A DNA stretch of 64,000 nucleotides from NCBI GenBank assembly GCA_021822165.1, contig JAKARM010000001.1:42443-106442 (forward strand), written 5' to 3'. A model generated the notes under the pieces. The model had not been told where the DNA came from and did not search any database. It was given only the letters and a program-made list of their open reading frames with translations. Positions within the stretch are counted from its first letter, which is position 1; every line of letters starts with the position of its first letter. Source of the DNA: Candidatus Micrarchaeota archaeon. GTDB taxonomy: Archaea; Micrarchaeota; Micrarchaeia; Micrarchaeales; Micrarchaeaceae. Shown here piece by piece: positions 36,690-56,692 of this stretch. A program made the translations under genes and the position numbers.

Positions 36690-36813
36690 GCCAGGGTGGC
36701 AGAATCTGGTAACGCGCTGGTCTTGAAATTTTAAATTATCAAGAGCTGATTAATGATGCAACAAGCCAACCAGTGCCCTCACGGGCTTTAGGGTTCGAAT
36801 CCCTACCCTGGCG
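36690..36813 (+). tRNA. tRNA-Ser(UGA), class II, with 40-nt intron at the canonical 37/38 position
   Basis: Acceptor GCCAGGG/CCCTGGC, discriminator G73, anticodon arm CTGGT-CTTGAA[intron 36728-36767]A-ACCAG, long variable arm GCCC-TCAC-GGGC, T arm TAGGG-TTCGAAT-CCCTA; D stem has one A.C mismatch. Confidence 0.85.
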
Positions 36814-48159: not shown

Positions 48160-48647
48160 TATATCATCAATACCTTTAACCTCCCAGAAATATTTATAGT
48201 TTTTGGAACCTATACTCTGTTGATATCTTATTTGTTGCAAATGAGAATTAGAAGCAAAGCCGCAGAAACCAATCCAAATACCCCCATAGTGTATTCATCT
48301 ATACTCCATGTGAAAGATATCAATGAGCTGAACCGTATAATATTAGTTAGGAAAAGTGTAGTAAAGTTAGAATTTTTAGGTGCTGTTGGACTCCAAAATA
48401 ATGACGAAGACGATATTGTAGCCCCTGATGGAATTCATAAGAAGAAATAGAGAGAACATAGCTGCCATAGTGGGGGATACGCCAAAAACCTCACACATAC
48501 CAAACAAGATAAAAGGTCACTTCTTTATCCCATATATGACTATTAAAGAGTTTGAGGATAAACGTAGTGCAATAACACTCATTAGGTGCTAAGACGGGAA
48601 CAATAGAACTGATATCTATCGTCTACATATATGACAAAAATGGTAAT

Positions 48648-49037
48648 GTGTTATTGACAAGGAATTCTGAAGCAAAAGGGGGTAGGTGGGGAATGCCTGG
48701 AGGGCATATAGGATTTGGGGAAACGATATTCACTGCTGCAAAGAGGGAGTCTCTTGAAGAGGTGGGCCTTGACGTGAAACCAATCGGTGTTTTCGGTATG
48801 AATGAGAATGTACCTAAGGACCCAACAAGGAAGCATTACATTTTATTCCATATAATTTGTTCTGCAGATTCAACTGATGTGAAAATCGATGGAAAGGAAT
48901 TGGTTGAATATGCTTGGCTTTCTCAAGAGGAGTCTATGAACCTTTTGCATGCGAGTGCATATAAAGAAATAATTAGAGAGTACGCCAATCAGTCTAAAAA
49001 AGGAAAGATTGAGTGGGTCTTTACACCATCACCGTAG
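48648..49037 (+). CDS. Nudix hydrolase (5' end uncertain, possibly degraded)
   Basis: Nudix box GGHIGFGETIFTAAKRESLEEVGL; typical N-terminal strand TIELISIVYIYDKNGNVLL is encoded in frame upstream of the first canonical start (GTG 48648) with no ATG/GTG/TTG after the stop at 48573. Confidence 0.65.
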   Translation: MLLTRNSEAKGGRWGMPGGHIGFGETIFTAAKRESLEEVGLDVKPIGVFGMNENVPKDPTRKHYILFHIICSADSTDVKIDGKELVEYAWLSQEESMNLLHASAYKEIIREYANQSKKGKIEWVFTPSP

Positions 49038-49331
49038 CTAAACATAAGATGATGAGTAATTTTATGCTAGAAAAGGCTCGCCCTAGGAAGGACGCCTGTA
49101 AATTAACAGTCCACCCATGATATACAATGCAATACACCCACTTAAGAAAACGTTTAGGAACCAACATTCTGTAAGTAATATGAAAAGCAAGTATGAATAG
49201 ATATGTAGCGATAAAAGATTAACCCGAAACGTTATTCTGGCTTTGCAGTTCATACTGCCATGTTGAAGGAAGTAATAGCTAATTAGATAAATAATCGAAC
49301 GTTTTGGGCATAAAAGAGGGTTTGTTGAATT

Positions 49332-49667
49332 CTACAGAAAGCTGATACTTCGCCGCAGCCAATGATGGGATGAAACGATTCGATAGCCATCTTCGTCCGG
49401 AAGGGGAACCTCCTTGAGGCCGTTCTGGACCCTGCGCCCGAGCGAACTGACGCTGTTGTACCCGACGAACACTATCGTGTTCTTGGGATCGTCCGCAAGC
49501 CTCTTGAAATACTCCAGGCTCGCGCCCCCGTTCATCATGCCGCCGCTGGCCAGTATTATAGATGGCCCTTTCTTGAAGACCTCCCCCTTTCCCGAACCGC
49601 GCAGGGAACCGAAATTGTTGGCATATGAAGGAGAAAAATGGAGAAAGGATAAGCAACCGCCGAAAGA
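49332..49667 (-). pseudogene. Remnant of a beta-CASP / aCPSF1-like metallo-beta-lactamase ribonuclease gene (about 100 codons only)
   Basis: In-frame translation FGSLRGSGKGEVFKKGPSIILASGGMMNGGASLEYFKRLADDPKNTIVFVGYNSVSSLGRRVQNGLKEVPLP matches the beta-CASP region of archaeal CPSF1-type nucleases; no room for the N-terminal 450 aa (S2 gene ends at 49679); similarity is lost after about residue 100. Confidence 0.6.
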
Positions 49668-50458: not shown

Positions 50459-50557
50459 TGGGGCCGCCGAGATTTTCATTGGTATTTTGAATTCCCGCAA
50501 TAGTCTCGGGTCGCCAGCACCCCAAGCTGGAAGCCTACCAAGCTAGCAGACGGCCCC
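50459..50557 (-). tRNA. tRNA-Pro(GGG) with 26 extra nt inside the T arm (two putative 13-nt introns)
   Basis: Acceptor GGGGCCG/CGGCCCC + A73, anticodon arm CCAGC-TTGGGGT-GCTGG, T-stem halves CCGAG/CTCGG separated by ACTATTGCGGGAA-TTCAAA-ATACCAATGAAAA-T; synteny (after rpoN) matches the tRNA-Pro position I recall in other archaea. Confidence 0.6.
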
Positions 50558-52084: not shown

Positions 52085-52193
52085 TGCGGGGGGCGAGATT
52101 TGAACTCGCGCAGTCTCTAAAGACACAGGAGTTCTGAGCAGGGAATACCTGCACCTCAGTCCTGCACATTTGGCCAAACTCTGCCACCCCCGC
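52085..52193 (-). tRNA. tRNA-Leu(GAG), class II, with 22-nt intron at 37/38
   Basis: Acceptor GCGGGGG/CCCCCGC + A73, anticodon arm CAGGA-CTGAGG[intron 52132-52153]C-TCCTG, intron forms CTGAG/CTCAG and GCAGG/CCTGC helices (BHB-like), variable arm GTCT-TTAG-AGAC, T arm GCGAG-TTCAAAT-CTCGC. Confidence 0.85.
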
Positions 52194-55423: not shown

Positions 55424-55517
55424 GGGCCCATAGCTCAGGTTGGAAGAGCGGCTGGCTCTTAACCAGTAGGCCGAGGGTTCAAAATGGATCTGTTCCAGGG
55501 ATATCCCTCTGGGCCCG
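55424..55517 (+). tRNA. tRNA-Lys(CUU) with 20-nt intron in the T-loop (position 59/60)
   Basis: Acceptor GGGCCCA/TGGGCCC + G73, D arm GCTC/GAGC, anticodon arm GCTGG-CTCTTAA-CCAGT, T stem GAGGG/CCCTC separated by TTCAAA[ATGGATCTGTTCCAGGGATA]T; removing 55484-55503 restores TTCAAAT. Confidence 0.85.
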
Positions 55518-55522
55518 TAATA

Positions 55523-56692
55523 TCAAGGCTGCAGCCAGTCTATCTCATAGTACTCGTATTCGCTTTTCGGCAGGTCTATCCTCCGAACCTTGTAATAGGT
55601 GACTGCCGTTTCTCTGTCCGCAATCGCTATGATCAGCTCGAGCTTGCGCTGCTTGGCCTCGTTTATTATAGCGGAAAGCTCGCTGCCCCCTATATACTCG
55701 TTCTCGCTCAGGGAGAGCATCGCGAACCTCGGGCTTTCCGAATTAGGCACCTCGATGGTGCCGTTTTTCCTATGAAAGAGGATGAAATCTATCGAGACGT
55801 TCTTCTTCCTGCTCTTGCCGGGTATTGCCAGGATGAAGGTCTTGCGGACGGAGTGGGCGACCCTTATAACCCTTGCCCATTCGGACGTCAGCATCTTTAC
55901 GTCGCGCGGAAAGACATGCAGCACGTGCCTTGAGTGCACCCATGTATTGTCGGTCTTCTGGGGTTTCGCCCCGGGGAAGTATATCCTGAAATGGGTCCCG
56001 AACTTGAACCCTGTTTTTATTATGTACCCTTTGCTCCTCCAGTCGGAATATACGTTGTAGAGCTTTGTGAAGTCTTCCCGGCGTTTGGTCGCGACTTCCA
56101 TTATTCCGGCCCTCTTGTAGTTTACCACTTTCAGCACCCCCGCATCCATAAGGAACAAGGTCTCGAATATGTCGAGCTTGTTGAGGATGCCGTGGTTATC
56201 CACCTTGTAGGTCCCGTACTGGCCGAACCACCCCTCCGCATATACCTCTTTCCCATCCTTGTTGTTGTCCACCACCGTCGTGAGGTCGTCCGGGAAGAAT
56301 AGCCCTTCCATATGCCACCCCTTGAGGCTGAAGGTGGAGGAGGGATACCCCTTGAGGGGGATCTTATAGCTCTCTTTCTGGGAAAATTTAAACTTTGCAT
56401 CCTTTATTATGAGTCCCCTGTCCCTCCAGTCCTTGTAGGTGAAATATCTCGCCATGAACTTCTTCTTGCTCACGTACGCAGAGGCAAGGTCGTTGAAGGG
56501 AACTTTCAGCCCTTTTGGAGTCGAGCAGTCGGCGTTTCTTACATCTATGAGGAATAGCGCCTCCTCTGGGAGGAGATGGAGCTTCCTGTCCTTCATCTCC
56601 CCAAAATGGCCGGACCGGAGTATGTCGATTGTTGACTGGTCCTCGGCGTATAGCCCTTTTTTAGCATTAGATATAATCTTCAGGACCATCAA
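55523..56692 (-). CDS. endA: tRNA-splicing endonuclease, three-unit single-polypeptide form (389 aa)
   Basis: Central catalytic unit SDWRSKGYIIKTGFKFGTHFRIYFPG...WVHSRHVLHVF; degenerate N-terminal unit (YKDWRDRGLIIKDAKFKF); additional C-terminal unit (ELIIAIADRETAVTYYKVRRI). Confidence 0.85.
   Translation of the reverse strand: MMVLKIISNAKKGLYAEDQSTIDILRSGHFGEMKDRKLHLLPEEALFLIDVRNADCSTPKGLKVPFNDLASAYVSKKKFMARYFTYKDWRDRGLIIKDAKFKFSQKESYKIPLKGYPSSTFSLKGWHMEGLFFPDDLTTVVDNNKDGKEVYAEGWFGQYGTYKVDNHGILNKLDIFETLFLMDAGVLKVVNYKRAGIMEVATKRREDFTKLYNVYSDWRSKGYIIKTGFKFGTHFRIYFPGAKPQKTDNTWVHSRHVLHVFPRDVKMLTSEWARVIRVAHSVRKTFILAIPGKSRKKNVSIDFILFHRKNGTIEVPNSESPRFAMLSLSENEYIGGSELSAIINEAKQRKLELIIAIADRETAVTYYKVRRIDLPKSEYEYYEIDWLQP

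Follow-up and report, generated by a model that had tools for sequence, protein, structure and literature searches.

Locus Organization

The 64-kb stretch of DNA that was analysed (hereafter the window), from a very small acidophilic archaeon of the Micrarchaeota, holds six tRNA genes, four of which contain introns (Table 1). One of the four, a tRNA-Pro(GGG) gene, belongs to an rps9-rpoN-tRNAPro-rps2 cluster, with the rpoN stop codon 17 nt before it and the rps2 start codon 12 nt after it. Read on its own strand from 50557 to 50459, the gene has the letters GGGGCCG TC TGCT AGCTTGGTA GGCT T CCAGC TTGGGGT GCTGG CGAC CCGAG ACTATTGCGGGAA TTCAAA ATACCAATGAAAA T CTCGG CGGCCCC A, and the CCA end is not encoded. 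Re-reading of the sequence confirms a preliminary description as to the acceptor stem, the discriminator A73 and the anticodon arm, and as to the T-stem halves, which a gap of 33 nt separates. The same description had located two inserts within that gap, at 50492-50504 and 50473-50485; these coordinates are exact, and all the elements it quoted lie at the places it quoted.

Ten independent public assemblies of this species, NCBI GCA_027319935.1 among them, carry the gene with 100% identical sequence. An assembly artefact is therefore ruled out, and no strain-level variation is seen at the tRNA-Pro locus among the 10 same-species contigs. Elsewhere, between rps2 and a UbiA-family gene (window positions ~48200-49660), same-species strains are separated by an indel of ~1.4 kb (comparison with loci L003, L004 and L009). 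It contains a NUDIX gene and small ORFs, and adjoins a 68-aa beta-CASP fragment, apparently a truncated gene.

The D arm (50532-50549, minus strand) has C9 and a U10-U25 mismatch (TGCT/GGCT), so that its stem consists of two Watson-Crick pairs and one G-U pair. This form, TCTGCT...GGCTT, is common to many tRNA-Pro orthologs, and other orthologs have G10-U25. The D-arms of tRNA-Pro(CGG) and tRNA-Pro(UGG) in ARMAN-2 are weaker still (Fujishima 2011, PMC3239211).

Table 1. Coordinates of the tRNA-Pro(GGG) gene and its parts, of the splicing endonuclease gene, and of the other intron-bearing tRNA genes in the window
Feature	Position	Strand	Description
Pre-tRNA-Pro(GGG) gene, 99 nt	50459..50557	(-)	Spliced 73-nt form called tRNA-Pro(ggg) by ARAGORN
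Exon 1	50505..50557	(-)	tRNA positions 1-53: acceptor 5' strand, D arm, anticodon arm, variable region CGAC, T-stem 5' strand CCGAG
Intron 1 (53/54), 13 nt, ACTATTGCGGGAA	50492..50504	(-)	A (third bulge base), C-TATT-G mini-hairpin, CGGG helix strand, AA bulge
Intron 1 central BHB helix, exon strand CCCG	50507..50510	(-)	Last variable-region base and T-stem 49-51; partner CGGG at 50494-50497
Exon 2, TTCAAA	50486..50491	(-)	T-loop 54-59; TTCA (50488-50491) is the exon strand of the intron 2 central BHB helix
Intron 2 (59/60), 13 nt, ATACCAATGAAAA	50473..50485	(-)	A bulge, T-ACCA-A mini-hairpin, TGAA helix strand (50475-50478), AA bulge
Exon 3	50459..50472	(-)	T60, T-stem 3' strand CTCGG, acceptor 3' strand CGGCCCC, discriminator A73
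EndA, 389 aa	55523..56692	(-)	Three-unit epsilon2-type tRNA-splicing endonuclease; Pfam tRNA_int_endo and N-terminal domains
tRNA-Lys(CUU)	55424-55517	(+)	20-nt intron at 59/60 (55484-55503); Lys(ctt) called once 20 nt removed
tRNA-Leu(GAG)	52085-52193	(-)	Long variable arm; strict 22-nt intron at 37/38, helix CTGA/TCAG, 5-bp intron hairpin
tRNA-Ser(UGA)	36690-36813	(+)	40-nt intron at 37/38, helix CTTG/CAAG, 4/4

Among the other intron-bearing genes, tRNA-Lys(CUU) ends 5 nt from the stop codon of the convergent endonuclease gene on the opposite strand. Its intron, which had been reported from the sequence at exactly 59/60, is indeed found there; the helix TTCA/GGGA has three of four pairs, and a 4-bp hairpin is formed by TGGA/TCCA. 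In its unspliced form this gene receives no ARAGORN call and scores 28.6 bits with Rfam, just below the 29-bit threshold. At the tRNA-Leu(GAG) gene, ARAGORN in intron mode calls a tRNA-Arg(cct) with a 27-nt intron; this is a miscall, and BHB-guided removal yields Leu(gag). ARAGORN also sets different boundaries for the tRNA-Ser(UGA) intron (32 nt vs 40 nt).

Recovery of the Cloverleaf by Intron Removal

The intact tRNA-Pro(GGG) locus is called by ARAGORN neither with the intron option on nor with it off, and a 221-nt slice around it yields no Rfam tRNA match even at E<=10. Upon removal of both inserts, ARAGORN calls tRNA-Pro(ggg), the canonical cloverleaf being restored as is expected of BHB-type introns; removal of either insert alone gives no call. 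In an exhaustive series of 3,465 single deletions, one (of 9 nt) produced an ARAGORN call, which is an artefact, since it depends on a T-stem with a mismatch and on a displaced acceptor stem. This bears out the earlier statement that no single excision works.

The 700 double deletions that leave a 7-nt loop were likewise enumerated. TTCAAAT arises only from the 13+13 solution, for which four placements are sequence-equivalent; another 13+13 placement gives TTCAAAA. The 73-nt cloverleaf with a TTCAAAT loop, which the preliminary description had predicted from joint removal of the two inserts, is thereby recovered. Furthermore, a TTCRAN core together with both BHB helices did not arise in any of 300,000 shuffles of the 33-nt segment.

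The sensitivity of the detectors can be gauged from intronless orthologs. The intronless gene of locus L055 (7792-7864), which differs at 4 positions, in the anticodon stem, reaches 47.5 bits against Rfam RF00005 (threshold 29) in a scan of a 251-nt region. When four whole loci (62 kb total) were scanned in Rfam gathering mode, this plain tRNA-Pro and the one at L052 7836-7908 went unreported. The whole-locus miss, set against the hit in the 251-nt region, indicates that speed filters can lose the tRNA body even without introns.

Bulge-Helix-Bulge Geometry

In the archaeal bulge-helix-bulge (BHB) motif, a 4-bp helix lies between two 3-nt bulges and holds the two splice sites at a fixed distance, the cuts being made after the second base of each bulge. 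For each intron, the exon bases that precede the 5' splice site at -6 to -3 were set against intron bases L-5 to L-2, with which this rule expects them to pair. The names hBHBh', hBH and HBh' for the motif classes follow PMC3488258 and PMC6379350.

Both tRNA-Pro introns form the central 4-bp helix that characterizes BHB-type introns, each with four of four Watson-Crick pairs: exon CCCG with intron CGGG at 53/54, and exon TTCA with intron TGAA at 59/60. Intron bases 8-11 provide the helix strand in both 13-nt introns, and each intron ends in AA. The two helices are also found in the unconstrained minimum free energy (MFE) structure of the 99-nt precursor. As an internal control, the canonical 37/38 introns of tRNA-Leu(GAG) and tRNA-Ser(UGA) in the window give 4/4 pairs by the same rule.

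The boundaries of intron 1 are unambiguous. Intron 2 could be placed at 56/57, 57/58 or 58/59 with the same spliced product, and these placements were rejected in favour of 59/60, since they leave the helix with one to three of its four pairs and the full 4/4 helix exists only there.

A strict hBHBh' motif, with an intron-side helix h' beside the 5' bulge, is not formed by either intron. The intron interiors, CTATTG and TACCAA, each have one base pair closing a tetraloop. A single closing pair does not amount to a true intron-side helix, and both motifs are therefore assigned to the relaxed hBH (bulge-helix-loop) type.

On the exon side, where a BHB-type intron has a 3-nt bulge at its 3' splice site next to a helix h, the two introns were considered separately. 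With intron 1 removed, the MFE structure of the T-arm around intron 2 consists of the T-stem, a 3-nt bulge (AAU), the 4-bp helix and a 9-nt loop. For intron 1, the exon-side helix read from the sequence has 2 bp (A47-U55 and G46-C56) and competes with the T-stem; in T-arm-sized constructs, the T-stem fold and the intron-1-helix fold have energies of -8.6 vs -5.0 kcal/mol. With a 2-bp exon-side helix and a T-stem fold that is as stable or more so, thermodynamics does not guarantee that the first BHB forms.

Comparative Series across Micrarchaeota

The adjacent ribosomal protein S2 was used as the search handle for orthologs. It led to 54 loci (designated by L numbers) from different Micrarchaeota species, with S2 identity to the window of 59-71%, among them the complete genome of Ca. 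Micrarchaeum sp. A_DKE (L038). Parsing of the tRNA-Pro gene succeeded at 50 of these loci, in 46 of which it lies directly upstream of rps2. Loci L015, L019, L020 and L025 have no tRNA-Pro upstream of rps2; a divergent, intronless tRNA-Pro(GGG) is located on the opposite strand of the same locus, at about 8750-8825 in L015, L019 and L025 and at 3935 in L020.

Locus L064 falls outside the parsed set, as the gene upstream of its rps2 has a T loop that could not be parsed. From 7876, this ortholog reads CCGAG AAGTCCAAAAAGGCTTCGGGA TTCGAAAAT CTCGG, with an intron-1-like insert that is one base short and a resulting T-loop of 9 nt. This could be an imprecise loss of intron 2, a degenerate gene or a sequencing error. 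A further locus, L033 (JAVYSI010000009.1), comes from a metagenome-assembled genome (MAG) labelled Methanothrix sp., and its rps2 locus is of the Micrarchaeota type, with tRNA-Pro exons and intron 1 identical to those of A_DKE; the label probably reflects bin contamination.

When the window is included, the 51 parsed genes fall into four states. Both introns are present in 25 genes (from 12+13 up to 14+27 nt), the 53/54 intron alone in 7 (20-35 nt), the 59/60 intron alone in 10 (14-19 nt), and neither in 9. The intron junctions are precise in all parsed orthologs. Intron sizes range overall from 12 to 35 nt. The preliminary description had called the pair of inserts in the window an extreme case, which does not hold, as four relatives carry a 12+13 pair, shorter than the 13+13 of the window.

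The central helix is preserved throughout this series. For intron 1 it has 4/4 pairs in 31 of 32 copies (3/4 in L057), and for intron 2 in 35 of 35. A compensatory change is present in L011, where the T-stem is CTGAG/CTCAG and exon CCTG faces intron CAGG instead of CGGG. Across 25 distinct sequences per intron, the conserved part is limited to the last six bases, which comprise the helix strand and two bulge bases: the ending CGGG plus 2 nt is kept in 24 of the 25 distinct intron 1 orthologs, and TGAA/TGGA followed by AA/AG is invariant in all 25 of intron 2. Longer orthologous introns additionally have h' hairpins beside the helix, in which base pairs covary (AT/TA/GC at the first pair, AT/GC at the second).

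The exons behave in the opposite manner to the introns. In eleven other species the mature tRNA is identical to that of the window at 73 of 73 positions around unrelated introns of 12-16 and 13-22 nt, even though S2 is only ~65% identical in these species. This indicates purifying selection on a spliced, functional tRNA, and on these grounds a decaying pseudogene, whose T-loop was broken by two insertions with a fortuitous likeness to introns, is highly improbable. The two features that might suggest decay are the failure of the standard detectors at the locus and the U10-U25 mismatch of the D-stem, and the U10 variant recurs in many orthologs, including intronless ones that score 47.5 bits. 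Neither relaxed exons nor unconstrained inserts, as a pseudogene would have them, are found: the inserts vary freely save for the six bases that build the BHB helix and bulge, and the substitution in L011 is compensated. Moreover, a single tRNA-Pro(GGG) is present in each 16-kb ortholog locus and in the 64-kb window.

The same series bears on a claimed interaction between the two inserts. Complementary ATTG and CAAT tetramers do exist in the window sequence, and it had been suggested that they could pair in the precursor, in which case the inserts might act as one composite unit, a single BHB-like structure in which every splice site is displayed. When the helix strands are left out, complementarity between the inserts extends over 3 nt at most, a length reached or surpassed in 49% of shuffles, and the T of CAAT is part of the TGAA strand of the intron 2 helix. 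Complementarity between the introns is likewise at chance level among 20 distinct two-intron orthologs, so that the pairing is not conserved in relatives; it is with the upstream exon that each insert pairs. The existence of species with only one of the two introns implies that each intron is self-sufficient, and a composite unit is accordingly most unlikely.

With regard to the history of the introns, the deep branches of an S2 neighbour-joining tree carry two-intron genes, and sisters occur in different states: L041 (23+13) stands by L030/L031 (0+18), and L011 (20+0) by L012 (0+19). This distribution suggests an old double intron with repeated precise losses, the tree of a single 200-aa protein being too weak for event counts. 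Two deep-branching loci, L060 (from 7863) and L061 (from 7866), contain the orthologous gene with anticodon AGG (A34) and discriminator G73, and have introns at the same two positions (14+27 and 14+13, respectively). An A34 tRNA-Pro was noted earlier for ARMAN-4 and ARMAN-5 (PMC3239211).

The Splicing Endonuclease

The gene at 55523-56692, which the preliminary description had taken for a tRNA-splicing endonuclease, is confirmed as such by its Pfam domains and by its match to the ARMAN-2 EndA (PDB 4fz2/9w2k); public gene calls start it one codon later (388 aa). The match extends from end to end, with 577 bits and 64% identity, and all ten of the functional residues considered are kept (Y160, K161, K224, K228, Y236, H251, R275, K282, D357 and W384). 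In the ARMAN-2 enzyme, Y160 and K161 belong to the specificity loop (ASL), Y236, H251 and K282 form the catalytic triad, K228, R275 and W384 contact the bulge, and K224 and D357 are needed for dimerisation (PMC3239211, PMC3488258, PMC12397907). The genome thus encodes an enzyme of the broad-specificity group ((alpha-beta)2 or epsilon2) that possesses the specificity loop. It is presumed to process both tRNA-Pro introns.

The ARMAN-2 EndA cuts both strict and relaxed motifs in vitro (PMC3239211), and among the introns that it excises there is the 13-nt hBH intron at 59/60 of tRNA-Cys(GCA) (PMC3239211 Fig. 4B; PMC3488258). A comparison of EndA occurrence with intron state covered 6 ortholog loci, the only ones with EndA within the 8-kb flank; 2 of them have an intronless tRNA-Pro.

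These data also address whether the inserts might stay in the mature tRNA as a 33-nt T-loop, or leave it by a route other than the BHB endonuclease. The relaxed motifs and the exon-side helix of only 2 bp at intron 1 would be compatible with either; on the other hand, sister species have a plain 7-nt TTCAAAT loop, or a single insert, at exactly the same junctions, and within the introns only the bases that make up the endonuclease motif are conserved. The canonical introns of the window obey the same BHB rule, and the genome encodes the type of broad-specificity endonuclease that cuts a 13-nt intron at 59/60. Retention or an alternative route is consequently considered very unlikely.

Proposed Splicing Pathway

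Collectively, the precise presence or absence of either intron in ~50 orthologs, the BHB geometry, the exon conservation and an EndA gene 5 kb away support the core of the earlier reading, namely a tRNA-Pro(GGG) that is interrupted at 53/54 and at 59/60 by very short introns of the endonuclease type. The locus is very probably a functional, twice-interrupted tRNA-Pro(GGG) gene, whose minimal BHB-type introns would be cut by EndA and whose exons would be ligated to a 73-nt tRNA.

From the geometry, the conservation and the EndA gene observed above, we infer cleavage, ligation and their order as follows. In the precursor, bases 8-11 of each intron would pair with exon bases -6 to -3 to give a 4-bp central helix, and the two bases before each 5' splice site, together with the terminal AA of each intron, would sit in a flanking bulge or loop. 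The epsilon2 EndA would then cut four sites, and an RNA ligase would join the three exons into the 73-nt tRNA with its TTCAAAT loop. The 53/54 intron would be removed first and the 59/60 intron second.

The predicted order follows from bases that the two motifs share. The intron 1 helix takes C48 and T-stem positions 49-51 and leaves 52-53 bulged, while the intron 2 motif needs the intact T-stem as its exon-side helix, stacked directly on TTCA. As the intron 1 helix occupies the 5' strand of the T-stem, the 59/60 motif would fold after its removal, and excision at 53/54 is therefore predicted to come first. This remains a weak, model-based prediction, the energies of the competing conformers being too close to decide; a thermodynamic proof of the splicing order was dropped for that reason.

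A more far-reaching proposal combines several elements: the two BHB motifs would be mutually exclusive, the order would be obligatory (53/54, then 59/60), the double intron would be ancestral to the clade and would have been lost precisely and independently many times, and the functional size floor of an epsilon2 substrate would lie at 12-13 nt. Taken as a whole, this proposal is tentative and somewhat more likely to fail than to hold.

Relation to Known Systems

The two-intron T arm of the preliminary description is already known. Candidatus Micrarchaeum acidiphilum ARMAN-2 has a pre-tRNA-Pro(GGG) for which introns at 53/54 and 59/60 were published in 2011 (Fujishima et al. 2011, Nucleic Acids Res 39:9695, Fig. 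1C; PMC3239211), so that the feature is correctly described without being new. The window gene agrees with the ARMAN-2 case in isoacceptor, in both intron positions, in phylum (a Micrarchaeota genome) and in the epsilon2 type of the endonuclease. In A_DKE, a cultivated relative, the tRNA-Pro gene likewise lies upstream of rps2; its introns are of 16+20 nt, and the mature sequence matches that of the window at 73 of 73 positions. The slot upstream of rps2, shared by 46 related species including A_DKE, supports the view that the window gene is an ortholog of the published case. In contrast to ARMAN-2, the window comes from another species, its EndA is 64% identical, and its introns are of 13+13 nt, relaxed and without an intron-side helix.

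The ARMAN-2 pre-tRNA-Cys(GCA) intron offers a second comparison. It resembles intron 2 of the window in its length of 13 nt, its 59/60 position, its relaxed hBH motif and the enzyme family that acts on it. It differs in belonging to another tRNA with a single intron, whereas in the tRNA-Pro of the window the 53/54 intron splits the 59/60 motif and has to be removed before the motif is whole. The Pro substrate is not discussed in the later EndA papers (PMC3488258, PMC12397907).

Multiple-intron tRNA genes are also described for Thermoproteales and other Crenarchaeota, which have (alpha-beta)2 endonucleases (Sugahara et al. 2007, 2008, as cited in PMC3239211, PMC3488258 and PMC6379350). As far as these citing papers describe them, the likeness lies in the presence, within a single tRNA, of two or three short introns of the BHB or relaxed-BHB kind at non-canonical sites, and in their co-occurrence with a broad-specificity endonuclease. 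On the same basis, the lineage is different and the enzyme is a heterotetramer as opposed to epsilon2; in the window, moreover, a single arm contains both introns at a spacing of 6 nt, and the two motifs are in competition for the T-stem.

No paper was found in the literature searched that reports a clade-wide four-state intron polymorphism in Micrarchaeota, and the literature examined does not state the mutual exclusivity of the two motifs with an obligatory order, an ancestral double intron or a size floor of 12-13 nt. The four-state polymorphism and the exclusivity of the motifs are modest additions to a known case.

Implications

What the comparative series contributes is an array of ~50 species in four presence/absence states, with introns of 12-35 nt and identical exons, which lends strong sequence-level support to splicing. 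An essential tRNA is silently missed by standard tRNA finders in these genomes, and as a consequence the annotations of Micrarchaeota MAGs will wrongly list tRNA-Pro(GGG) and tRNA-Lys(CUU) as absent. The ~50 species also provide ready natural variants for the study of minimal substrates of the epsilon2 endonuclease and of splicing order. If ordered splicing and an ancestral double intron prove true, this gene family would constitute a natural series for the order of splicing in multi-intron tRNAs and for intron loss.
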